A stretch of 64,000 bases of DNA, taken from contig JAAZXB010000012.1 in the NCBI GenBank assembly GCA_014240375.1, positions 15,829 to 79,828 of the forward strand. The letters are read 5' to 3'. A program made the translations under genes and the position numbers. Below, in pieces: positions 4,346-55,777 of the stretch (its first letter is position 1; the number at the start of each line of letters is the position of its first letter). The DNA comes from Planctomycetota bacterium (lineage in GTDB: Bacteria; Planctomycetota; UBA8108; UBA1146). The notes below the pieces were generated by a model. That model saw only the letters and a program-made list of their open reading frames with translations, did no database searches and was not told the DNA's origin.

Positions 4346-5686
4346 ATGAACGATGAAGAAACGATGAAGCCGGCAGGGAATGACCGCCGTGACTTCCTCA
4401 AAGGCGCAGCACTGGCAGCCGGTGCCATCGCCATCAGTGGGAACAGTTTGCTCGGCTCGGAGCGGATCGGTGCCAAGACCGGTGTCATCGGTAGAGCCGC
4501 TCGTCGCACCCCCCTGGGCGACGATGGAGTGGTGCGAATGGGAGTCATCGGGACCGGAGGGATGGGCGGTGGCCACATCGATTCCTTCCTCCGCTTTGCC
4601 ACCCGTGGCGAGGACAAGGTCAAGATCGTTGCAGTCTGCGATGTCAACCATAAGCGCCGCGCTGTTGCCGAGAGTAAGATCAACAAGGCGCAAGGGGATG
4701 AGTGCACCGTCTACAACGATTACCTGGAACTGCTCGCTCGCGATGACATTCACGGAGTGCTGATCGCTTCCCCGGAACACTGGCACGCCCAGATGGCTGA
4801 AGATGCGTTGATGGCGGGCAAGGATGTGTACCTCGAGAAGCCGATGACGCTGCGTTTGCCGGAGGCGTTGCGCCTGCGTCAGGTGGTTCTCAATAACCCC
4901 GATGTGCTGCTCCAGGTCGGTACCCAGAAGATCATGCTGCCGAAGTACAAGGCGGCTCAGGCGATGGTTGCAGAGGGCGCGATCGGCAAGCCGACCTTCA
5001 GTCAGACCTCCTACTGTCGCAACTCCAGAGATGGGGAGTGGAAGTACTACGGCATCGATCCCGAGTGGAAGCCGGGGGTCAATGTCGACTGGGATCGCTG
5101 GTGTGGCCCGGCCGGAGTTCGCGACTGGAACCCGGCATTGTGTGCTCGCTGGCGTCGCTACAAGGATTTCTCGACCGGCATCGTCGGTGACCTGCTGGTT
5201 CACGAGATCACTCCGTTGATGATGGCGCTCGATCAGGGCTGGCCCACTCGGGTGGTGGCCACCGGTGGCCATTACATCGACAAGGCGATGGAAAATCACG
5301 ATCAGGTCAACTTGCAGATCCAGTTCGAGAAGGGGCACACCCTCATCGTGGCGGGGTCGACCTGCAACGAGATGGGTCTCGAGACGATGATCCGGGGCCA
5401 TCAGGGCACCATTTACCTCAACGGGGGCAACTGCAAGATGGTCCCTCAGCGCTTGTTCGCCGACGATGTCGAACCGCAAGAGGTGATCTGCGAGAGCATC
5501 GGCAATGATCAGGATGCGCTTCGTCGTAACTGGCTCGATTGCATTCGCACCCGTCGTCAACCCGATTCCAATGTCGATCTGGGGACCAAGGTGATCGTTG
5601 CGGTCGACCTGGCGACCCGTTCGATGTGGGAGGGCAAGGCGTTCGAGTTCGATCCTTCCTCGATGACTGCCACGAGCATCGGCTAG
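4346..5686 (+). CDS. Tat-exported Gfo/Idh/MocA family oxidoreductase
   Basis: GAGGAG precedes the ATG. The RRDFLKGAALAAGAIA Tat motif is followed by a Rossmann fold (MGVIGTGGMGGGH) and the EKP motif (VYLEKPMT). Confidence 0.85.
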   Translation: MNDEETMKPAGNDRRDFLKGAALAAGAIAISGNSLLGSERIGAKTGVIGRAARRTPLGDDGVVRMGVIGTGGMGGGHIDSFLRFATRGEDKVKIVAVCDVNHKRRAVAESKINKAQGDECTVYNDYLELLARDDIHGVLIASPEHWHAQMAEDALMAGKDVYLEKPMTLRLPEALRLRQVVLNNPDVLLQVGTQKIMLPKYKAAQAMVAEGAIGKPTFSQTSYCRNSRDGEWKYYGIDPEWKPGVNVDWDRWCGPAGVRDWNPALCARWRRYKDFSTGIVGDLLVHEITPLMMALDQGWPTRVVATGGHYIDKAMENHDQVNLQIQFEKGHTLIVAGSTCNEMGLETMIRGHQGTIYLNGGNCKMVPQRLFADDVEPQEVICESIGNDQDALRRNWLDCIRTRRQPDSNVDLGTKVIVAVDLATRSMWEGKAFEFDPSSMTATSIG

Positions 5687-5705
5687 TCGGTCGCGGGGAT
5701 ACGAG

Positions 5706-6608
5706 ATGATGCACAGGGGAGCTCTCCCGGCGATGGGAACTCGATTCGAGATCGTCGCCGGGGGAGCGGATCCCGCTCTTCTACGTGCTGCAGTGGAGGA
5801 AGCCTTCGAGGAGATCTCCACCTGTCATCGGTTGTGGAATGTTTTTTCCAACGACAGCACACTGGCACGAATCGATGCCGAATCTGCCGGTAAACCGGTG
5901 ACCATCGATGGGCTGACACTGGAACTGCTGCAGATCTGTTCCCGACTTCATCAGCAGACTGGCGGTTTCTTTGATCCGGTCATCGGAGCGGACCTGGCGG
6001 CCGGGGATCCGCGTCGCGCTCCGATCTTCGGTGTCGCTCCTCGAGATGGTTTCGGGGGAATCGAACTCGATGCTGCGGCTTCCACTGTACGGCGACACGA
6101 TTCTCGATTGAGGTTCGACCTGGGGGGGATCGCCAAGGGCTTTGCCTGTGATCTGGCCGCCTCGATCCTGCTCGAAGCGGGAGTGGAGTGTGCGTTGATC
6201 CATGGCGGCACCAGTAGCGTGGTGGCGTTGGGAGCGGCTCCGGGAAGGCAGGACTGGTCGATCGAGGTGAAGGGTTACGAGGGGAAGCAGATCGGACTGG
6301 TCGACCGTGCGATGGCGGTCACCTCCGCCGGAGGCGGCGGCGCAGGGGGCCACCTCATCGATCCCTTCAGCGGCGATCGACTCGGGCGTGATCGCGGTGG
6401 AGCGATGGTGGTCGGAGACAGTGCAACCGACTGTGATGGCTGGGCCACCGCACTGACTGTGGCTGGCTTTGAAGGAGATGTGGCCCGACAGATTCCTGCA
6501 ACGATGCAGGGCTATCGGCTCAACAATGAAGAATCGACTCACATGAAACCGGAAGCTGAGGCATCCGTGGAAGAGGAACGATGGAAACGGACCGTAGAGA
6601 TTTCTTGA
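5706..6608 (+). CDS. apbE: FAD:protein FMN transferase ApbE (no signal peptide)
   Basis: The AMGTRFEI (MGT motif), DLGGIAKGFA and AVTSAGGG motifs are characteristic of ApbE. The N-terminus starts directly at the catalytic core with no signal peptide or lipobox. It overlaps the next gene by 28 nt. Confidence 0.75.
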   Translation: MMHRGALPAMGTRFEIVAGGADPALLRAAVEEAFEEISTCHRLWNVFSNDSTLARIDAESAGKPVTIDGLTLELLQICSRLHQQTGGFFDPVIGADLAAGDPRRAPIFGVAPRDGFGGIELDAAASTVRRHDSRLRFDLGGIAKGFACDLAASILLEAGVECALIHGGTSSVVALGAAPGRQDWSIEVKGYEGKQIGLVDRAMAVTSAGGGGAGGHLIDPFSGDRLGRDRGGAMVVGDSATDCDGWATALTVAGFEGDVARQIPATMQGYRLNNEESTHMKPEAEASVEEERWKRTVEIS

Positions 6609-7810
6609 TCCAGAGCGCAGGTGCACTGGCCGGGATGGCACTTCTTCCAGGACTGGAAGCGATGGCGACGAATGTCCCGAAAGGCTATCCGGTTGCCATC
6701 ATCGGCATGGGCCGACAGGGTCGAGCGATTGCCGCAGAGTTGCAGAAACTGGGAGCGGCCATCGTGGCGATCTGTGACCTCGATGAGCCGCGATTGAGAA
6801 GTGCCAGGAGGCGCGTCTCGGATGCCACTCCCTATGCCGATTCGGATTCGTTGCTGACGACCGAGAAGGGAGTGGAGGCGGTCTTCATCGCCACCCCGAC
6901 CCACCAGCATCGGGCGATTGCCGAGGCGGCAGTGGCGGCGGGCAAGCATGTCTACTGCGAGGCGCCGCTGGCACATACCCTCGAGGATGCTCGGGCCATC
7001 GCCTTGGCCGCCCGTTCCAATCCGCGAGTTTTCCAGGTCGGGTTGTTGGCGCGATCCAATCCGGTCTACTCGCTGGCTCGCTCCTTCTTCCGCACCGAGG
7101 CGTTCCTCAAGTTGGTCTCGATGCGCGCCCAGAACTCACGGAAAACCTCCTGGCGTCAAGCGGCCTCGACTGCCGAGCGGCAAGCTCGTCTCGACTGGCG
7201 TCTCGACCCCACCGTGTCGCTCGGATTGCCGGGAGAATGGGGCACCCATCAGTTTGATGTCATTCATTGGTTCACCGGGCAGTATCCCCATCGTGTGTCG
7301 GGAAATGGCGGAGTGTTCGTGTGGGAAGATGGGCGCAAGGTCGCCGATACCGTCAACTTGACCCTCGAGTTTCCCAAGGGCCAGAGTCTCCAGTACCAGG
7401 CGACGCTGGGCAATTCATATGGTGGCCGCTACGAGGTGCTCCATGGCGTCAACTCCGCATTCAAACTGGCCTGGAGTCATGGCTGGATGTTCAAGGAAGC
7501 GGATGCGGCGACGCAGGGCTGGGAAGTCTACGCCAACCGTCAGCGCTTCTTCAATGACGAGGGGATCACCCTCATCGCTGATGCGACCAAACTCGCCAGT
7601 CAGAACAAGTTGAAGGATGGGGTTGGACTCCCCAATGATTCTCTCCATTACGGTGTGGCAGATTTCCTGCTGAGTTGTGCAGAGCAGATGAAGGTCAAGA
7701 CGGGGGTCAGTGAAGGACTGCGAGCGACTGCCGTGGGGATCGCTGCACAGCGTGCGGTGGTCGAGGGTGGCGTGATCGAGATCTCACAGGACGATCTGAA
7801 GGAGGCCTAG
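6581..7810 (+). CDS. Tat-exported Gfo/Idh/MocA family oxidoreductase
   Basis: The RRDFLIQSAGALAGMAL Tat signal is followed by a VAIIGMGRQGRA Rossmann fold and a CEAPLA (EKP-variant) motif. Confidence 0.8.
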   Translation: METDRRDFLIQSAGALAGMALLPGLEAMATNVPKGYPVAIIGMGRQGRAIAAELQKLGAAIVAICDLDEPRLRSARRRVSDATPYADSDSLLTTEKGVEAVFIATPTHQHRAIAEAAVAAGKHVYCEAPLAHTLEDARAIALAARSNPRVFQVGLLARSNPVYSLARSFFRTEAFLKLVSMRAQNSRKTSWRQAASTAERQARLDWRLDPTVSLGLPGEWGTHQFDVIHWFTGQYPHRVSGNGGVFVWEDGRKVADTVNLTLEFPKGQSLQYQATLGNSYGGRYEVLHGVNSAFKLAWSHGWMFKEADAATQGWEVYANRQRFFNDEGITLIADATKLASQNKLKDGVGLPNDSLHYGVADFLLSCAEQMKVKTGVSEGLRATAVGIAAQRAVVEGGVIEISQDDLKEA

Positions 7811-7813
7811 TCG

Positions 7814-8611
7814 ATGGGATCAATGCCAATCGCTGGAGAGGGGCTCAGTTCTCAACCGATGGGCATCCGGACCGGGATCAGCGCCCTGATCGTGGTGCTC
7901 TATATCGGACTCCTCGCCAGTGCGACGCACATGGTGAGTCACTTCGAGAATCGTGATGAACGACCCGGTTTCACCCTGGATGATGTGACCGGCGCGTACC
8001 ACGGTATCGACAGCCCTGGATTGCTCGGTACAGCCCTCGAAAGGGGACATCCGGAGACGCTGCCTGCGGCGCAGAGGGAGTTGCTACTGAGCTGGCTCAC
8101 GGGTGGGCGTATCGTCGAGGATTACGACAGCCTCGACCTGGAAATCCCACCCGCCGAGATCATCGATCTGAGTTGCATCGAATGTCACACCAGGGCCGCC
8201 GGTGCCGCGACCGGCTCGGTGATCCCACCGCTGGAGTACTTCGACGATATCAAGGAGATCGCCTTCTCCCGCAAGGTGCTGCCCACGCCGGTCGAGGTGC
8301 TGGCCGCCTCGACCCATGCCCATGCCCTGGCGCTGTCGATCCAGGGATTGGTGGTGATCGCACTGGCGTGCATGACACGCTGGCGGCGCCGCTGGATCTC
8401 CTTATTGATCGCCATCATGGGGCTGGGACTGGTCGGCGATGTAGGGGGTTGGTGGTTGGCCCGTTTCAGTCCATCCTGGACGCTGTGCATCATCGTCTCG
8501 GGGACGGCATACAGCGTTTCTCAGGGGATCTTGCTCGCCTCGGTGCTGGCGGATCTCTGGTGGCCCGGGGCCAGTACGAGCGGAACAAAACAGCAAACGG
8601 ACACGGAATAG
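7814..8611 (+). CDS. Small polytopic membrane protein with one CXXCH (c-type heme) motif
   Basis: AGGAGG lies 9 nt upstream. I count four hydrophobic helices (ISALIVVLYIGLLASA, LALSIQGLVVIALAC, ISLLIAIMGLGLVG, TLCIIVSGTAYSVSQGILLASVL). SCIECH sits in the loop between TM1 and TM2. No family recognised. Confidence 0.6.
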   Translation: MGSMPIAGEGLSSQPMGIRTGISALIVVLYIGLLASATHMVSHFENRDERPGFTLDDVTGAYHGIDSPGLLGTALERGHPETLPAAQRELLLSWLTGGRIVEDYDSLDLEIPPAEIIDLSCIECHTRAAGAATGSVIPPLEYFDDIKEIAFSRKVLPTPVEVLAASTHAHALALSIQGLVVIALACMTRWRRRWISLLIAIMGLGLVGDVGGWWLARFSPSWTLCIIVSGTAYSVSQGILLASVLADLWWPGASTSGTKQQTDTE

Positions 8612-8616
8612 GAGTC

Positions 8617-9891
8617 ATGATGAGCCAGCAGAAGCCAGGTGCGAGCCGTCGAGAGTTTTTGAAGGGTGCTGCGGTCGCTTCAGCGGCGACCTTGTTGACC
8701 CCCTCACTGTTGCAGGGCAAGGCGCATGCCGATGGCTCGGATGTGATCCGGGTTGGATTGATCGGCTGTGGAGGCCGAGGATCCGGTGCCGCCAACAACT
8801 GCGTGAACTCCTCCGAAGGAGTCAAGATCACCGCGATGGCGGATCTGTTCCGCGACCGTCTCGACTCGAGTCGAAACAACCTCAAGGGGCTGGGGGATCG
8901 CTTCGATGTTCCCGAGGAGCGCTGCTTCGTCGGCTTTGATGCCTACCAGCAACTGCTCGACTCCGGTGTCGACATGGTGATCCTGGCGACGCCTCCCGGA
9001 TTCAGACCGATCCACTTCGAGGCGGCTGTGGCTGCGGGTAAGCATGTCTTCATGGAGAAGCCGGTCGCCACCGATGGGCCGGGAATCCGCAAGGTACTGG
9101 CTGCCGCCAAGGTCGCCAAGCGCAAGGGGCTGGCGGTGGTCGCCGGAACCCAGCGTCGTCATCAGAAGAGCTATATCGAAACGATGCAGCAGATCCACGA
9201 CGGTGCCATCGGAGAACTGGTCGGCGCTCAGGTCTACTGGAATCAGGGGGGACTGTGGGTGACGCGTCAAACCCCGCAGATGTCCGACATGGAGTGGCAG
9301 GTGAGAAACTGGCTCTACTTTGCCTGGGCCAGCGGCGATCACATCGTCGAGCAGCACATCCACAACATCGATGTGATGAACTGGGCCTTCGGTGGACCTC
9401 CCGAGAAGGCCAACGCCATGGGTGGCCGCCAGGTGCGTACCGGTCCGGAGTACGGCCATATCTTCGACCACTTCGCAGTCGAGTACGTCTACCCGGGTGG
9501 AGTGAGAACCCTCAGTGAATGCCGTCAGATCGACGGCTGCTGGAACCGGGTTTCGGAGAAGATCATCGGCACCAAAGGGGTCGCCAATCCCTCCGGACGC
9601 ATCACCGGCGAAAAGAACTGGAGCGCCCCTGGCGGTGGAAGAAACGCCTATGTTCAGGAACATGCCGATCTGATCGCCAGTATCCGCGCCAATGAACCGC
9701 TGAATGAGGCGGAGCGGGTCGCGATGAGTACCCTGACCGCCATCATGGGTCGGATGAGTGCTTACACCGGCAAGGAAGTCACCCTCGAGTTCGCACTCAA
9801 CTCGCAGAACAGCCTGCACCCCGAGAAGTGGCAGTTTGGTGATCTGGCGCTGCCTGCAGTTGCGATCCCCGGACGCACGGCTCTGGTCTAG
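8617..9891 (+). CDS. Tat-exported Gfo/Idh/MocA family oxidoreductase
   Basis: AGGAG is 4 nt upstream of the ATG. The SRREFLKGAAVASAATLL Tat signal is followed by a VGLIGCGGRGSGAA Rossmann fold and the FMEKPVA (EKP) motif. The tracked ORF 8173-9891 extends upstream as an in-frame read-through of gene 7814-8611 and was trimmed. Confidence 0.85.
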   Translation: MMSQQKPGASRREFLKGAAVASAATLLTPSLLQGKAHADGSDVIRVGLIGCGGRGSGAANNCVNSSEGVKITAMADLFRDRLDSSRNNLKGLGDRFDVPEERCFVGFDAYQQLLDSGVDMVILATPPGFRPIHFEAAVAAGKHVFMEKPVATDGPGIRKVLAAAKVAKRKGLAVVAGTQRRHQKSYIETMQQIHDGAIGELVGAQVYWNQGGLWVTRQTPQMSDMEWQVRNWLYFAWASGDHIVEQHIHNIDVMNWAFGGPPEKANAMGGRQVRTGPEYGHIFDHFAVEYVYPGGVRTLSECRQIDGCWNRVSEKIIGTKGVANPSGRITGEKNWSAPGGGRNAYVQEHADLIASIRANEPLNEAERVAMSTLTAIMGRMSAYTGKEVTLEFALNSQNSLHPEKWQFGDLALPAVAIPGRTALV

Positions 9892-9900
9892 GGGGCAGCG

Positions 9901-10821
9901 TTGGATCGCAGAAATTTTATCTCCGCGGCAGCTCTGGGAGTGGTCGGCAGTAGCTGGGTGGGTGCCATGAAACCGGGGGCAGAAATGTCGACCCCAGCGG
10001 ACTCTTCGCTTCAGCCTCGCCTCAAGAAGTCTCTCAAGATCGGCATGGCGAATGTCGGAAAGACACTGGAGGAGAAGTTCGAAATTCTCAAGGAAGTCGG
10101 ATTTGACGGAGTCGAACTCGATTCGCCTTCCGCTCTCGACTGGCGAGAAGTGTTGCGCGCGAAGGCGGCGACCGGTCTCGAGATTCCCGGAGTGGTGTGC
10201 TCCTCACACTGGGGAAAGCCACTTTCTGCGACGGACGAAAAGGTCCGTCAGCAGGGGATCGAGGGAGTCGAAACCGCGCTGAGAGATTGCCGCCTCTTCG
10301 GTGGCACCACGGTGCTGGTGGTGCCGGGAGTTTGCCGAGATGGAGTCACCTACGAGCAGGCGTGGAAACGATCGACCGAGGCGATTCATCAGTTGATTCC
10401 TCTGGCGGCAGAATTGCGCGTTCGAATCGCCTTCGAGAATGTCTGGAATGATTTCATCACCGATGCCGATGAAGCGGTGAAGTATGTCGATCAGTTCAAC
10501 AGTCCATGGGTCGGCTGGTACTTTGATACCGGTAACATCGTTCGTTATGGCAGTCCCCCCGAGTGGGTGAGAAAACTGGGCGCACGAACCATCAAGGTCG
10601 ACATCAAGGATTATTCCCTCTCCCGCAAGGAGAAGGATGGAGTGTGGGCCGGATTCGCCTGCAAGATCGGAGATCCGGACTCATCGGTTCAGTGGTCTGA
10701 AACGATGAAGGCGCTCGTGGAGATAGGCTACCGTGGTTGGGGGTCTGCCGAGGTGAGCGGCGGAGATCAAGAGCGCCTGGCCGATATTTCCCGTCGTATG
10801 GATGACGTGTATTCCAGGTAG
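9901..10821 (+). CDS. Tat-signal sugar phosphate isomerase/epimerase (xylose-isomerase-like TIM barrel)
   Basis: A TTG start sits 7 nt after a GGGGG run. RRNFISAAALGVVGS is a Tat motif. IAFENVW...WYFDTGNIVRYG...IKVDIKD is typical of the family. Confidence 0.7.
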   Translation: MDRRNFISAAALGVVGSSWVGAMKPGAEMSTPADSSLQPRLKKSLKIGMANVGKTLEEKFEILKEVGFDGVELDSPSALDWREVLRAKAATGLEIPGVVCSSHWGKPLSATDEKVRQQGIEGVETALRDCRLFGGTTVLVVPGVCRDGVTYEQAWKRSTEAIHQLIPLAAELRVRIAFENVWNDFITDADEAVKYVDQFNSPWVGWYFDTGNIVRYGSPPEWVRKLGARTIKVDIKDYSLSRKEKDGVWAGFACKIGDPDSSVQWSETMKALVEIGYRGWGSAEVSGGDQERLADISRRMDDVYSR

Positions 10822-10921: not shown

Positions 10922-13900
10922 ATGTCTCTGACGACTAAAAGCGTGTTCCTGTTGCTTGCACTGTCCCTCTGCTCTGGCCTATCGGGACAGGTTAGCGCGG
11001 ATTCCTGGGTCAACTGGGAAAGCCCTCCTGTTCATCCACTGGAACTGGTTTCGGGCAGTGACCTGCTGCTGGCAACCAACACGGCAGATTCCCATCTGGA
11101 GATCTACAACATCAGTTCCGGTGTCCCGGTGCCGCTCATGTCGGTGCCGGTAGGACTCGATCCGGTATCGGTGCGAGCTCGCAATGCCACCGAGGCGTGG
11201 GTGGTGAATCGAATTTCAGACACCATCAGTATCGTCGACCTTCAAAATGGCTATGTCCGATGGACATTGATGACAGCGGATGAACCTGCGGATGTGATCT
11301 TTGCTGGCACGCCGGAACGCGCTTATGTTTCCTGCTCGGGAACCGATGAGATCATGGTGTTCGATCCATCCGATGTGACGGCCTCCCCCGAGATCATTTC
11401 CTTGGTGGGTGAGGAGCCTCGGGCACTTGCCAAGAGCCCCGACGGATCGATCGTCTACTGCGCCATCTTTGAATCGGGCAATGGCACCACCGTGCTCGGC
11501 GGTGGTTTCGATATCGGGGCCAATGTCATCGCTTTTCCGCCCAATGTCGTCAATGATCCAGCAGGGCCTTATGGTGGCGTCAATCCTCCGCCCAATTCCA
11601 ATGGCGAGTTTGAGCCACCAATTAACCCCAGCATCGGTACACCTCCACCCGTGGCACTGATCGTCAAGAAGATCGACCAGGATGTGTGGGTCGATGATAA
11701 CGGAAGTGACTGGGGAGATCTGGTCAGCGGGCCACAGGCAGGCCTCTCGGGTCGCCAGGTCGGCTGGGATCTGGCAGATCATGATGTCGCGGTCATCGAT
11801 ACCACCGACAACTCGGTCACATACATCCAGTCGCTGATGAACATCTGCATGGCGATCGGTGTTCGTCCGACCGATGGAGCCATCTCGGTGGTCGGAACAG
11901 AGGCATTCAATCACATCCGCTACGAACACAATCTCAACGGGAACTTCATCGATGTGCTGCATGCGATGATCGCCCCGGGAGGTGCGGCCATTGCGCAGAT
12001 TGATGATCTCAATCCGCATCTACCCGCCAGTGGTGTCAGTGTTCCCCTCGATCAGCAGTTGCTGAGCATAGGAGATCCGCGTGCCATCGTCTGGAATGCC
12101 GCAGGTACCGAGGCTTTTGTCGCAGGCAAGGGATCCGGGAATGTGGTCCGGCTCCAGGCGGACGGAACCCGGGATCTTGTGGCGGATCCCATCGACGTGG
12201 GTGCCGGTGCGACCGGTCTCGCCCTCGATGAATCGAGGGGAAAGCTCTACGTGCTGGAGCACTTCGATGCCTCGGTCGCTTCCATCGATATTCAGACCGG
12301 CACCGTCAGTGGTCGAGAGACCTATCACGATCCCACCGGAGCAGTGGTGCGCTCGGGTCGAAAGTTCCTCTACGACACACACCTCACCTCCGGAATGGGC
12401 CAGGTCTCCTGTGCTTCTTGCCATGTCGATGCGCGGACCGATCGCCTGGCGTGGGATCTGGGAGATCCGGCGGGAGAGGAGGCTCCATTCGTCGATGTCT
12501 GCAACATGGGTCTGCCGCTTCCGGGTGTTCCTCCGTGTGATGATTTCCATCCGATGAAGGGGCCGATGTTGACCCAGACATTGCAGGACATCATCGGGAA
12601 GGAACCTCATCACTGGCGTGGAGACAAATTTGGTATCGAGGCCTTTGGTGGCGCATTCATGTCGATCAATGGGGATGATCTCCCGGTCGGAGGGGTAGCG
12701 ATGCAGGAGTTCGAGGCATACCTCGCCAGCATCTATTTTCCGCCCAATCCGTTTCGCGGCATGAGAAATGAGTTGCCCACCGCATTGCCACTCGACGGCC
12801 ATTTCACGACCGGTCGCTTCGGTTCTGAAGGTGAAATACTGGGCAGTGGAAATGCAGAGACAGGGCTGGATCTTTATCGCAATGCTGGCCTCGATGGAGG
12901 TTTGCAGTGTGTGACCTGCCACGCGCTTCCCATCGGAATCGGACCCAACTCTGAATTCAGTTCTGGTTTTGTCATGGCAACGATTCCCGACGGTCCGATG
13001 GGGGAAAAGCACCATGGTATGGTCAGTGTCGACGGTTCCGTTCAGCGGAACATCAAAATCCCTCAGTTGCGAAACGTCTACAAGCGCACCGGTTTCAACA
13101 CCACCCAACTGCTCAATACAACCGGATTTGGATACCTGCACGACGGGTCGGTGGATTCTGTTGAACGCTTCATCAGTGAGCCGGCCTTCTCGGTGACCAA
13201 TGATCAACAGATTGCAGATCTGACCGCCTTCATGCTGGCATTCTCTGGATCCGACCTACCAGAGGGAAGTAACCAGACTCCCTTCGAACCACTCGGGTCG
13301 CCGAGCCAGGATTCGCACGCTGCAGTGGGGATGCAGATCACCCTGGACGAGACCAATAGAGATGACGCTGAAGTGCTCGCAGATGCGCAGATCATCCTCG
13401 ATGAGGCGAGTCTGGGCAGGGTCGGTGTGATCGCCAAGGCGTGGCAAGGCGGATTCCTTCGTGGATGGGTAATGGTGGGCGCCGGCACCGGTGTGTTCCA
13501 GTCCGACATCCTCGCAGAAGCCACCACCTTCACCGACCTTCGCAACTCGGCGGTAGCCGGTGCGGAAGTGACCTTCACCGTGGTTCCGACCGGTTCGGCG
13601 CTGAGGATGGGGATCGATCGCGATCTCGATGGTCATTTTGATGGGGACGAACGCCTTGCCTGTTCCGATCCTGCCGATGCACTGTCTCAACCTGGATCCT
13701 GCTCTGGCGTGTTCTTTGTCCGTGGCGACGGAAATGGCGACGGCGCACTTGATATCTCCGACGCTATTTCAACGCTAACGCTCCTGTTCAGCGGTGGCAG
13801 TTCCAGCACCACCTGTGAGGATGGTCACGACAGTAATGATGATGGGGCCATCGATATCGGAGACCCGATCGCTCTGCTCTCGTACCTCTTTGCTGGAGCC

Positions 13901-13984
13901 GCAGAGTTGCCGGCCCCGGGGGCCAACTGCGGTGAGGATCAGACGGGCGACACCTTGCAGTGTAGCGAGACCGTCTGTCCCTGA
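10922..13984 (+). CDS. Secreted fusion protein: N-terminal beta-propeller-like region, di-heme cytochrome c peroxidase (CCP/MauG)-like domain, C-terminal dockerin-like module
   Basis: The signal peptide is MSLTTKSVFLLLALSLCSGLSGQVSA. FLYDTHLTSGMGQVSCASCH matches the CCP-family first-heme signature, and a second CXXCH is present (CVTCH). The C-terminus carries two Ca-binding dockerin-type repeats (GDGNGDGALDISDAISTLTLLF, DSNDDGAIDIGDPIALLSYLF) and then a CGEDQTGDTLQCSETVCP tail. Confidence 0.8.
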   Translation: MSLTTKSVFLLLALSLCSGLSGQVSADSWVNWESPPVHPLELVSGSDLLLATNTADSHLEIYNISSGVPVPLMSVPVGLDPVSVRARNATEAWVVNRISDTISIVDLQNGYVRWTLMTADEPADVIFAGTPERAYVSCSGTDEIMVFDPSDVTASPEIISLVGEEPRALAKSPDGSIVYCAIFESGNGTTVLGGGFDIGANVIAFPPNVVNDPAGPYGGVNPPPNSNGEFEPPINPSIGTPPPVALIVKKIDQDVWVDDNGSDWGDLVSGPQAGLSGRQVGWDLADHDVAVIDTTDNSVTYIQSLMNICMAIGVRPTDGAISVVGTEAFNHIRYEHNLNGNFIDVLHAMIAPGGAAIAQIDDLNPHLPASGVSVPLDQQLLSIGDPRAIVWNAAGTEAFVAGKGSGNVVRLQADGTRDLVADPIDVGAGATGLALDESRGKLYVLEHFDASVASIDIQTGTVSGRETYHDPTGAVVRSGRKFLYDTHLTSGMGQVSCASCHVDARTDRLAWDLGDPAGEEAPFVDVCNMGLPLPGVPPCDDFHPMKGPMLTQTLQDIIGKEPHHWRGDKFGIEAFGGAFMSINGDDLPVGGVAMQEFEAYLASIYFPPNPFRGMRNELPTALPLDGHFTTGRFGSEGEILGSGNAETGLDLYRNAGLDGGLQCVTCHALPIGIGPNSEFSSGFVMATIPDGPMGEKHHGMVSVDGSVQRNIKIPQLRNVYKRTGFNTTQLLNTTGFGYLHDGSVDSVERFISEPAFSVTNDQQIADLTAFMLAFSGSDLPEGSNQTPFEPLGSPSQDSHAAVGMQITLDETNRDDAEVLADAQIILDEASLGRVGVIAKAWQGGFLRGWVMVGAGTGVFQSDILAEATTFTDLRNSAVAGAEVTFTVVPTGSALRMGIDRDLDGHFDGDERLACSDPADALSQPGSCSGVFFVRGDGNGDGALDISDAISTLTLLFSGGSSSTTCEDGHDSNDDGAIDIGDPIALLSYLFAGAAELPAPGANCGEDQTGDTLQCSETVCP

Positions 13985-15992: not shown

Positions 15993-17129
15993 ATGGCGCC
16001 GAGTCGGCGAGATGTCGGCCGTAACTGGCAACTGGTGATTGTCGGGGGCGGATTGGCGGGATTGGCCACTGCCGCCAGTTGTGCCCGCAGGGGGATCGGA
16101 CCGATTTTGCTGGTCGAGCAGGAATCGAGACCAGGAAGTCACTCCAGCGGCAGAAATTCCGGTCTGATCCGAAGGGTCGCGGAAAACCCCATCACCACCC
16201 GGCTCTGCATCGAGGGGGCCGATGAGATCGAATCGCTGTGGAGTTCCCGGCGAGAAAACTCCCCTTTTCGTAGGTGCGGATCGGTGATCTTTGACCCCTC
16301 GGGTGAGATCGCCGATGGTTGCTGGAGTCAGGTTTCGTTCAACCGTTGGGACGAAACCCAGTTTCGATCGATGTTTCCAGAGTTCCAGCAGCTGCCGGCA
16401 GGGGAAGCACGATTTGTCGAGGCGGACGGGATCCTCGAAGTCCCGGCGCTACTGGGTCACTTCGCAGCACAGGCCAGAGATGCCGGCGTGGAGTTGCGGA
16501 TGGGGTCTCTCGCTCATCATCCACGAATCGAGGGCGGTCGATTCACCTCGATCCACATCGATGGAATCGAGATGAAATCAGAGGCACTGGTGGTGGCGAG
16601 CGGGGCGTGGGCGGGTCAATGGTCGCAGGCGGCGGGTGTCCCCATCGAGATGACTCCGTACCTGCGAAGTTGTGTTCACTCCGATCCGATCGGCCACCCA
16701 CCACGTCTTCGACCGTGGATCTGGGCCCATGATCCAGGGTGGTATCTCAAATTTGGCAACGAGAATACGCTCTGGAGCGCTTGTGAAGAGATCGCCGATC
16801 AGCCGGGTCGAGCGACTGTTTGCGGCGATCCCTGGCAACGAGTGAAGGAACGGGTCGGCCCCTCGATCGACGCCATCGAGGATCTGGAGCCTCGTCATAT
16901 CTGGGCCGGACATCGGAACTTCTGTCGCGACCGTCAATTCCTCTTGGGTCCCGATCCGCGGATCGAAGGCTGGCACTGGGCGGTCGGTCTCGGGGGGCAC
17001 GGTGTGACCGCTTCACCGGCGGTGGGTCAACGGGTGGCGGCGGGAATCATCGAGGGACTCGACGGGCTCGAGCCGGAACTGTGCTGGAGTGAAGAGCGAT
17101 TCCCGATGAACCGTGCAGGAACAACTTGA
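15993..17129 (+). CDS. FAD-dependent oxidoreductase (DAO / glycine-oxidase-like family)
   Basis: N-terminal LVIVGGGLAGLATA dinucleotide-binding motif; size and layout typical of DAO-family flavoenzymes. Confidence 0.7.
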   Translation: MAPSRRDVGRNWQLVIVGGGLAGLATAASCARRGIGPILLVEQESRPGSHSSGRNSGLIRRVAENPITTRLCIEGADEIESLWSSRRENSPFRRCGSVIFDPSGEIADGCWSQVSFNRWDETQFRSMFPEFQQLPAGEARFVEADGILEVPALLGHFAAQARDAGVELRMGSLAHHPRIEGGRFTSIHIDGIEMKSEALVVASGAWAGQWSQAAGVPIEMTPYLRSCVHSDPIGHPPRLRPWIWAHDPGWYLKFGNENTLWSACEEIADQPGRATVCGDPWQRVKERVGPSIDAIEDLEPRHIWAGHRNFCRDRQFLLGPDPRIEGWHWAVGLGGHGVTASPAVGQRVAAGIIEGLDGLEPELCWSEERFPMNRAGTT

Positions 17130-54077: not shown

Positions 54078-54352
54078 GTCTTTCCTATCCCCTCTCAGTA
54101 CCACAGGAGTTTCCGGCTGACCTACGATGCATCCTCGAGAAAAGGTGTATGCAACTCGCCAGGCGAGGATCCGTCGCTACCCGCTCGGTTTGCAGCTCTC
54201 GTATTTCTCTTCAGGTATTCTTCTCCGCGTTCTGGCCAGCCCCGACCTGTACATGTGCCTGTTGGTAATTGTCATACGATGCACTTAGTCCTGGGTAGGG
54301 CATGGTGAAAGACTTGAGCGATGAATCGTGCGACAATGGCGGGGGAGGACTC

Positions 54353-55777
54353 ATGAACGTTCGATACACACTTCTCGCCCTGCTGACGGCGGCGCTATTG
54401 CCCGCAACTGGCCAATCTCAGCAGGCTGCCATCGAATTTGCCCCGCCCGTATCGGTCGTGATGGCGGACAAGGTCAATGCCGTCAAGATGGCGGACGTCG
54501 ATTCCGATGGCCACCTCGACATCATCGCCTTGCAGGGGGAGCCGGCACTCACTTCGGGGATGTTCGTCGCTCTCGGCGATGGCAGCGGCAATTTCGATGC
54601 CCCCGTCTTCAACGCGATCTCCATCAACTGGCCCTGGGCGATCGATTTCGGCGACATCAACGAGGATGGAGTCATCGATGCGGTCGTGACCGATTTCCTG
54701 AGCGGCCAATTTGCCTACATGGAAGGAAACGGCGACGGAACCTTCAGCGAACAGCCGAGGTTGGTGCCCGGCTGGGGAGGCGGAAATCCGCAGGTACAAC
54801 TCGCCGATATCGACGATGATGGGCACCTCGATGTGATCGCCGTCGAATTGTTCGGTTCGCGGTTACAGGTGGCATGGGGCACAGGAATCGATGATCCGCT
54901 GGCAGCGTTTGACGGTCTGTCGTCGATCCTGCTGACGGGATATCCACTCAGCTTTGATATCGCCGATCTCGATGGCGATGGCGACCTCGACCTGTGCTGC
55001 GGATTCAACGCCGGCAGCGGCGGTGGGGTGGCGACCAGCCTCTACCTGGGGGGCAGAACCTTCTCCGCCGAGGAACGCTCGATCGGCGGGCTGACCGATT
55101 CTCACTGGTCGACGATCGCCATCGATCTCGATGGCGGACTGCCAGAGATCGTGACCGTCGAGGAGGGGCTGGGGAACCTTGGAATCTTCACCGTGGCTGC
55201 AGGGATTCCCCAGGCCGGAATCCCGATCTTCACCGGATCGAATCAGCGCCATGTGGACGGTGGGGATCTCGACCTCGATGGCATCACCGACCTGGTGATC
55301 AGAAACTACTCTTCCGGAGATCTTGTCATCCTGCAGGGTATCGGCGCCTTGGAATTCCTGGATGTGTGGACCCTCGACGGATCGGTTTCCTTCTCGGGGC
55401 TGGAGCTGGTCGATGTGAACGGGGATGGAGGTCTCGATATCGTCGTCGGCAACTACGATCAATCGACCGTCTCCTACTACCTGAATCTGACGGTCAGCGG
55501 AGCCTTCAGGCGCGGCGAACTCAACGGCGATGGCAACACCAACATCGCCGATGCCGTGTTCCTGCTCGCCTACCTCTTCAACAATGGGTTCACGCCGGGT
55601 TGTCTGGATGCCGCCGACACCAACGATGATGGGGGGGTCAACATCTCCGATGCGGTGACGTTGCTGGCGGTTCTCTTCAGCGGGGCCCCGCCACTGCCGG
55701 AGCCGATCGGCTCGTGCGGTCCGGATCCGACCGATGATGCGCTCGAGTGCGAAGATTCAGGAGATTCCTGCCTGTGA
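54353..55777 (+). CDS. Secreted FG-GAP/VCBS-repeat (integrin-alpha-like beta-propeller) protein with C-terminal dockerin-like module
   Basis: GGGGGAGG 5 nt upstream. Signal peptide MNVRYTLLALLTAALLPATG. Repeated Dx(D/N)xDGxxDhhh motifs are present (DVDSDGHLDIIAL, DINEDGVIDAVVTDF, DIDDDGHLDVIAV, DLDGDGDLDLCCG, DVNGDGGLDIVVGN). The C-terminus has GELNGDGNTNIADAVFLLAYLF and DTNDDGGVNISDAVTLLAVLF, then a CGPDPTDDALECEDSGDSCL tail. Confidence 0.8.
   Translation: MNVRYTLLALLTAALLPATGQSQQAAIEFAPPVSVVMADKVNAVKMADVDSDGHLDIIALQGEPALTSGMFVALGDGSGNFDAPVFNAISINWPWAIDFGDINEDGVIDAVVTDFLSGQFAYMEGNGDGTFSEQPRLVPGWGGGNPQVQLADIDDDGHLDVIAVELFGSRLQVAWGTGIDDPLAAFDGLSSILLTGYPLSFDIADLDGDGDLDLCCGFNAGSGGGVATSLYLGGRTFSAEERSIGGLTDSHWSTIAIDLDGGLPEIVTVEEGLGNLGIFTVAAGIPQAGIPIFTGSNQRHVDGGDLDLDGITDLVIRNYSSGDLVILQGIGALEFLDVWTLDGSVSFSGLELVDVNGDGGLDIVVGNYDQSTVSYYLNLTVSGAFRRGELNGDGNTNIADAVFLLAYLFNNGFTPGCLDAADTNDDGGVNISDAVTLLAVLFSGAPPLPEPIGSCGPDPTDDALECEDSGDSCL

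Follow-up and report, generated by a model that had tools for sequence, protein, structure and literature searches.

The window analyzed here, a 64,000-nucleotide stretch of contig JAAZXB010000012.1 from a Planctomycetota bacterium, encodes on its forward strand a 1020-residue protein (Table 1) in which a probable Sec signal peptide, a YVTN-type beta-propeller, a di-heme c domain, a conserved alpha/beta domain and a dockerin-like module follow one another. Profile comparisons identify the heme domain as a divergent branch of the CCP/MauG superfamily and relate it by homology to bacterial cytochrome c peroxidase (bCCP), MauG, MbnH and the gamma subunit of hydrazine synthase (HZS). The protein represents a large, widespread family in a typical form, with nothing exceptional in its locus. 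Its function is read tentatively, with rather less than even confidence, as that of an extracellular, partner-independent di-heme oxidative enzyme that works without a cytochrome donor and is driven by H2O2 or O2. A first-pass annotation made from the letters of the window had described the order of signal peptide, propeller, CCP/MauG-like di-heme region and dockerin, and that order stands, as do its heme-1 signature, its second CXXCH and its two dockerin loops; a third calcium-binding loop (residues 899-910) went unmentioned there. Its suggestion of a secreted oxidative heme enzyme also remains the best reading.

According to this proposal, the protein would be exported, most likely displayed on the surface or released, and would act as a stand-alone oxidative heme enzyme. 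Heme 1 (C497/C500/H501) would be the catalytic site and would face the propeller, and electronic coupling to the second heme (C663/C666/H667) would run through the invariant HHW565 block. Heme 2 would not be ligated by His/Met as in bCCP and is probably bis-His via His697, and it would store or relay the second oxidizing equivalent. H2O2 (as in MauG) or O2 (as in RoxA) would oxidize a substrate held at the interface of the propeller and the heme domain; cytochrome-fed detoxification of H2O2 is not the proposed role, and the dockerin would merely position the enzyme. Since there is no extracellular cytochrome donor and no conserved partner gene, the enzyme probably uses H2O2 or O2.

Homology of the heme domain to the CCP/MauG superfamily is supported in both of its halves. 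The heme 1 motif sits within the CCP_MauG signature GRxxLYDxxxxSGxGxxSCxSCH (here FLYDTHLTSGMGQVSCASCH, residues 482-501, nt 12365-12424), and the two CXXCH motifs are 166 residues apart, within the spacing of about 145-200 that is seen in the superfamily. The comparison with Pfam that had been proposed for this region narrowly exceeds the CCP_MauG threshold (26.8 bits versus a cut-off of 25.6, residues 479-504 only, when the full protein is used; 31.2 bits for the isolated heme domain), and in orthologues the match spans profile positions 2 to 76-78, past the HHW565RGD block. A profile of the heme domain only (residues 468-800, 25 sequences), searched against PDB sequences, has Shewanella BccP (3o5c) as its top match (E 9.9e-5), followed by HZS-gamma (E 0.004) and MbnH (E 0.012). 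The heme-1 signature is included in the BccP alignment, whose second half has the CXXCH (CVTCH here, CVSCH in BccP), KVPxLRN and (F/L)HDGSV in register. Comparison of the same profile with 22 bCCP C-terminal halves by hhalign gave a probability of 94.4% (E 8.9e-8, 113 columns), a result limited to the second heme domain because the bCCP fragment search yielded only C-terminal half-proteins.

Membership in the superfamily rests on this profile evidence because structure prediction adds no independent support. The AlphaFold2 model of the full-length protein has a predicted local distance difference test (pLDDT) score of 78 and a predicted template modeling score (pTM) of 0.82, with low confidence right at both heme motifs, as expected of an apo model. 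A model of the heme domain reaches a pLDDT of 69, with heme regions below 50, and Foldseek found no significant match to it. The first-pass annotation had named the absence of the second heme-binding ligand residues and of a CCP fold in a structure prediction as grounds for abandoning the assignment; the Met ligand of heme 2 is indeed absent (Pro754), and the prediction neither shows nor excludes the two-domain fold, which in the superfamily places the hemes about 10 A from each other with a Trp as the bridge.

The pattern of conservation among 73 orthologues drawn from several phyla further delimits the domain. The only conserved Cys residues are those of the two CXXCH motifs, and H740 is conserved in at least 97% of the sequences. 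W565 is the probable counterpart of the inter-heme Trp of bCCP and MauG, judging from the order of motifs. Pro754 aligns with the position of the Met ligand in bCCP (~14 residues after the His of HDGS), and the heme 2 region thus departs from the His/Met ligation of canonical bCCP. At this position 57 of the orthologues have Pro and the others D, R or G, and its top five residues exclude Met, His and Tyr. His697 is a candidate for the sixth ligand, in which case heme 2 would be bis-His, like heme II of HZS-gamma (PMC12607021).

The likeness to bCCP raises the alternative that the protein is a classical enzyme of this type, residing in the periplasm or envelope, in which a soluble cytochrome c or a cupredoxin would deliver electrons to heme 2 and H2O2 would be reduced to water at heme 1, with the propeller and dockerin acting as a scaffold. 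Classical enzymes (e.g., Shewanella BccP and Pseudomonas CCP; PF03150) likewise carry two c-type hemes ~165 residues apart and a heme-1 signature (GRxLFYDxxLSxxxxxSCxSCH) that is also found here, they contain CXXCH, VPxLRN and (F/L)HDGS in the same order and a conserved Trp between the two motifs, and the hosts of the present family are mostly aerobes exposed to H2O2. However, the electron-accepting heme has Pro754 instead of a Met ligand, an insertion of ~20 residues lies between heme 1 and the Trp, the alignment with bCCP ends after ~30 residues, and the middle of the domain cannot be aligned by HMMER. Unlike bCCP, the protein also carries a 440-aa propeller, an alpha/beta domain and an anchor within the same chain, and is likely extracellular. 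A scaffold role poorly explains the strict conservation of such a propeller, with its many invariant loop residues, and the T9SS tails and carbohydrate-binding modules of orthologues point outside the cell, where there is no cytochrome donor. A classical bCCP therefore appears unlikely, although its probability is far from negligible.

MauG (3l4m) and MbnH (6e1c) are di-heme enzymes that are driven by peroxide and modify a partner protein. Both share the heme-1 signature, a second heme that is not ligated by Met, and the Trp with the studied protein, although no counterpart of the MauG Tyr ligand is apparent here and the MbnH model of NCBIfam (TIGR04039) scores 17.7 against a cut-off of 362.85. 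No MbnP/preMADH or mau-type partner gene is linked to the gene in its neighborhood in the window or among the 69 loci whose flanking DNA sufficed for a survey of clustered flanking open reading frames (ORFs). RoxA (4b2n) is an extracellular, CCP-related di-heme protein that functions without a donor, has its active site at the N-terminal heme and lacks peroxidase activity (PMC6797691); its heme 1 is devoid of acid-base residues, and it is without a propeller and has no sequence-level match to the studied protein.

The N-terminal region is recognized as a propeller both by sequence and by fold. As the first-pass annotation had anticipated, it matches YVTN propellers, with the archaeal S-layer protein 1l0q found at E 2.9e-13 by the single sequence and at 1.8e-28 by a family profile of 45 sequences, for which the next propeller matches are HZS-beta (5c2v_B, 4e-12) and YncE (6e-12). 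The AlphaFold2 model is confident over residues 28-470 and probably comprises seven blades. Foldseek against the PDB places HZS-beta (5c2v_B) first (E 7e-15, TM score 0.77 relative to the target) and 1l0q a close second, and NirS and NirF are also among the fold matches. Pfam matches on the propeller are weak (lactonase, YncE), and the sub-threshold matches in NCBIfam comprise PQQ_ABC_repeats, hydrazine synthase beta, the beta-gamma fusion and gamma, YncE, and MbnH. A Pro/Trp-rich insertion within the propeller holds residues that are invariant across phyla (P216, N221-P223, N225, P232, W256, D258, D259, W264, R278, W282).

A second alternative places catalysis in the propeller itself, at a metal, organic or protein-derived cofactor, with the di-heme domain serving only to conduct electrons, in the way known from cytochrome cd1 nitrite reductase and the quinohemoprotein dehydrogenases. 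Many invariant polar residues in the propeller loops (the D362-L-N364-P-H366 motif, D258/D259, D286/D288 and R278) and the fold matches to NirS and NirF count in its favor. However, H366 is the sole conserved residue of the His/Cys kind that could contribute to a metal center, no cofactor-biosynthesis genes are linked, matches of the YVTN/lactonase type are generic, and heme 1 keeps a catalytic-type CCP_MauG signature and not that of a plain class I cytochrome; this arrangement is accordingly regarded as quite unlikely. A heme-d1 or pyrroloquinoline quinone (PQQ) site in the propeller was rejected because there is no conserved ligand set; hosts such as Myxococcus are also not known to have the heme-d1 and PQQ pathways.

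The domain order is shared with HZS beta and gamma (5c2v) and their fused homologues, in which a seven-bladed YVTN propeller is likewise followed by a CCP-like di-heme domain. HMMER aligns SCASCHvdARMDRLAWDLGD with SCASCHYERGQTTGLIWDLGD of HZS-gamma. Trp (the invariant W565) occupies the place where HZS-gamma has His144, a substitution shared with the non-anammox beta-gamma homologues, and the third Cys-heme link of HZS-gamma (gamma-Cys165), which together with gamma-His144 is a feature of HZS (PMC12758564, PMC12607021), has no conserved Cys counterpart. Only two short fragments came back when a 48-aa piece of HZS-gamma was used to look for homologues. Environmental bacteria commonly encode distant fused homologues of HZS beta-gamma with Trp at gamma-His144 (Hagglund et al. 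2025; PMC12758564); these homologues are 610-680 aa long and match Scalindua beta-gamma at ~1e-45. Membership of the studied protein in that published family was rejected, since its relatives are ~1000 aa long and its scores differ, and Myxococcus, Marinicella and Corallococcus do not appear in the tables of that study. The studied family is a different branch, more distant than the published homologues.

These likenesses suggest a third alternative, namely N-oxide chemistry like that of HZS beta-gamma, in which heme 1 would bind and reduce NO, another N-oxide or hydroxylamine with electrons arriving via a bis-His heme 2, and the propeller would gate a substrate tunnel. It is regarded as highly improbable. 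In its favor, HZS-beta is the best fold match of the propeller, HZS-gamma ranks second among PDB sequences for the heme domain with SCASCH...WDLGD in common, weak NCBIfam matches to hydrazine_BC, hydrazine_beta and hydrazine_gamma occur in the order of a fused subunit, and distant beta-gamma-like fusions with Trp are known to be widespread in environmental bacteria. Against it, the scores are far under the family cut-offs (NF052342, NF052340 and NF052341 with 40.6 versus 1250, 35.4 versus 560 and 14.7 versus 625, the first being that of hydrazine_BC), the Cys expected at gamma-Cys165 is missing, the published homologues form a different and shorter family, no HZS-alpha-like gene is found in the neighborhood within the window or as a conserved neighbor at the 69 loci, hosts include obligate aerobes (e.g., Myxococcus), and family members carry extracellular tags, unlike HZS.

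A location outside the cell, as assumed in the proposal of an extracellular oxidative enzyme, is addressed by both ends of the protein. The N-terminus (MSLTTKSVFLLLALSLCSGLSGQVSA followed by DS) looks like a Sec signal peptide, probably cleaved after VSA at an AXA-type site (VSA/DS). At the other end, the calcium-binding loop DRDLDGHFDGDE ends the conserved core, and what follows differs from one orthologue to the next. In a set of 78 orthologues whose 3' ends are complete, the conserved DRDxDG loop is followed by a dockerin/EF-like tail in 24, by another extension of 140-270 aa in 23 and by a short tail without a calcium loop in 7; 14 have no tail, including all Myxococcus copies, and 10 are unclassifiable. 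Module-less orthologues stop 15-34 aa beyond the loop, whereas the modules seen in long family members are discoidin/F5-8C, CBM_4_9, PKD, He_PIG, Ig-like and TSP3, alongside a sorting tail of the type IX secretion system (T9SS). Because these C-terminal tags are interchangeable, a cell-surface or extracellular location is favored.

The dockerin had been called unusual for an enzyme of this kind, a description that does not hold, as it is a lineage-specific, routine and interchangeable anchor. A type I dockerin consists of two 22-residue segments, each made up of a calcium loop and a helix. The two calcium loops of the studied module (DGNGDGALDISD at residues 936-947 and DSNDDGAIDIGD at 970-981) are accompanied by helices in the AlphaFold2 model (residues 945-956 and 980-990), and orthologues pass the threshold of Pfam Dockerin_1. 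An unrelated secreted protein of 491 aa with FG-GAP/VCBS repeats, encoded in the same window (54302-55777, + strand), ends in the same dockerin and Cys-rich tail; the two tails are 45% identical (E 3e-24), and the module of the FG-GAP protein scores 23.2 bits on Dockerin_1 against a cut-off of 22.9. The shared tail points to a family of surface proteins bearing dockerin tags in the source organism. Cohesin and dockerin modules have already been described in Planctomycetes (PMC6461901), and the non-cellulosomal dockerins of Planctomycetota (annotated by NCBI as 'GC-type dockerin domain-anchored protein') show the same two loop-helix units at the C-terminus of secreted proteins, although the copy studied here falls below the Dockerin_1 (PF00404) threshold, at an E value of 0.79. 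No cohesin partner was identified within the 64-kb window.

Several points weigh against the proposed extracellular, donor-free enzyme. A Sec signal peptide alone reaches only the periplasm in a diderm, and the studied copy could be periplasmic and supplied by a soluble cytochrome donor. The CCP_MauG match of the N-terminal heme domain, at 26.8 bits, is only marginal. The equivalence of W565 was inferred from motif order and not from a residue-level alignment, and His697, plausible as it is as a replacement ligand for heme 2, amounts to a guess.

A bolder extension of the proposal, put forward as speculation and with a low probability, is that the family constitutes a previously unrecognized class of partner-free extracellular di-heme oxygenase or peroxygenase, in which an HZS-beta-like propeller would form the substrate channel to MauG-like hemes, and whose relation to the module recruited by anaerobic ammonium-oxidizing (anammox) bacteria as HZS beta-gamma would be that of an aerobic sister lineage. 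In a more radical variant, the heme pair might install a protein-derived cofactor in its own propeller, by analogy with MauG, which does so in trans; four Trp residues of the propeller are invariant (W93, W256, W264 and W282). The family joins both building blocks of HZS beta-gamma in aerobic heterotrophs, which bears on the origin of the anammox enzyme, and the existence of cultured hosts (Myxococcus spp., Corallococcus and Marinicella meishanensis) makes its function directly testable.

The family is large and has no family-specific annotation. A homologue search retrieved more than 3870 relatives, the top 120 of which are all ~1000 aa long, 51-90% identical and from metagenome-assembled genomes (MAGs) of Planctomycetota; the names they bear in databases are unspecific ('beta-propeller fold lactonase family', 'YVTN', 'YncE family', 'GC-type dockerin domain-anchored'). 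When the heme domain was used for an exhaustive HMMER scan, 340 clusters (50% identity) were obtained at E<=1e-30 and 1725 at E<=1e-3. The architecture is fixed, in that the heme domain of complete relatives almost always begins at about residue 460-530, i.e., behind the propeller. Confirmed relatives occur in at least 596 GTDB species genomes, and members from Planctomycetota, Verrucomicrobiota, Myxococcota, Gammaproteobacteria and Acidobacteriota share a single architecture, always exported, at identities above 50%. The best 80 of these at least 596 relatives are 52-94% identical across the heme domain and come from Phycisphaerae, Planctomycetia, Verrucomicrobiota, isolates of Myxococcus and Corallococcus, Marinicella meishanensis, Lysobacterales, Pseudoxanthomonas, Alcanivoracaceae, Thermoanaerobaculia and other Acidobacteriota; the closest among the matches listed (L008, 94%) is from a marine Planctomycetota MAG. 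The family is also present in Bacteroidota. Two loci carrying the gene (L049 and L077) are labeled 'MAG: Akkermansia muciniphila'; their tails resemble those of environmental Verrucomicrobiota (L065 and L083), and the labels may therefore be taxonomic misassignments.

Table 1. Features of the gene and of the adjacent cluster in the 64,000-nucleotide window (positions are those of the window; residues are those of the studied protein unless stated otherwise).
Feature	Residues	Position	Strand	Evidence or remark
Whole gene		10922..13984	+	Single ORF, 1020 codons plus stop (1020 aa)
Sec-type signal peptide (probable)	1-26	10922..10999	+	Sequence reading; pLDDT <50 at residues 1-25
YVTN-type beta-propeller	27-470	11000..12331	+	PDB profile matches, Foldseek, pLDDT mostly >90
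Pro/Trp-rich insertion in propeller, conserved	193-285	11498..11776	+	Invariant residues; pLDDT 57-89
Di-heme c domain, CCP/MauG superfamily	471-800	12332..13321	+	Pfam, family profile, hhalign
Heme 1 motif CASCH	C497, C500, H501	12410..12424	+	Kept in 72/73 orthologues; the exception is X
WDLGD motif 3' of heme 1		12452..12466	+	Common to HZS-gamma, not bCCP; W511-G514 invariant
HPMKGPM...HHWRGD block	H543, M545, M549, H564, W565	12548..12625	+	Residues 97-100% conserved in 73 orthologues
Heme 2 motif CVTCH (C663, C666, H667)	663-667	12908..12922	+	Kept in 73/73 orthologues
His697 (candidate heme 2 ligand)	697	13010..13012	+	Kept in 71/73 orthologues
C-terminal motifs IPQLRN and LHDGS, then Pro754		13058..13189	+	Aligned with bCCP KVPTLRN, FHDGS and invariant Met
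Alpha/beta domain, conserved	801-897	13322..13612	+	Confident in AlphaFold2 model
TSP3-like calcium-binding loop	899-910	13616..13651	+	DRDLDGHFDGDE; R895, D899, R900, D901 invariant
Dockerin-like module		13718..13891	+	Two calcium loops, each then a helix; dockerin 2y3n_B E 0.0058 (family profile)
Cys-rich C-terminal tail		13892..13981	+	ELPAPGANCGEDQTGDTLQCSETVCP; same pattern in close orthologues L008-L010 and ORF 54302-55777
Gfo/Idh/MocA-ApbE (flavin transferase)-TIM-barrel cluster, co-directional		4346-10821	+	Three Gfo/Idh/MocA oxidoreductases (two with Tat signals), ApbE and one xylose-isomerase-like TIM barrel; block kept in 74%-identical relative
Membrane ORF with CXXCH, 265 aa	CIECH at residue 121 of the ORF	7814-8611	+	One N-terminal and several C-terminal transmembrane segments

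A Shine-Dalgarno-like GAGAGG element lies 7 nt 5' of the ATG of the gene; a promoter and terminator scan around the gene found none, a scan that is uninformative for the host phylum. On its 5' side are three Gfo/Idh/MocA oxidoreductases, at least two of them with Tat signals, together with ApbE, a membrane protein that has a single CXXCH and two TIM barrels of the xylose-isomerase-like kind, and on its 3' side a convergent CitMHS transporter. The 5' cluster looks like a periplasmic module for sugar or inositol oxidation, and the first-pass annotation had considered the studied protein as its terminal electron sink. This link was rejected, as the adjacency is retained only in close relatives (e.g., the 74%-identical P0003) and is gone in four relatives at 51-55% identity, and no gene family recurs as a neighbor in more than 7 of the 69 loci. 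Since the adjacency is lost and no neighbor is conserved, the gene is considered a stand-alone unit. The cluster also has a CXXCH membrane protein of its own (7814-8611), a candidate membrane cytochrome that possibly accepts electrons from the Tat-exported oxidoreductases. The orthologue of this membrane protein in L001 is tagged PF27139 (Aq_1264_TM), and in the 74%-identical relative (L001-L003) the cluster block comes together with a major facilitator superfamily transporter. Downstream, genes for a DAO-family FAD oxidoreductase, a methyltransferase, a phosphoribosyltransferase-like protein and GatCAB are syntenic with the gene in a 55%-identical relative (L004 9181-10338 and window 15993-17129), although in the window CitMHS interrupts the arrangement on the opposite strand; the shared order probably reflects the genomic backbone and not a connection in function.

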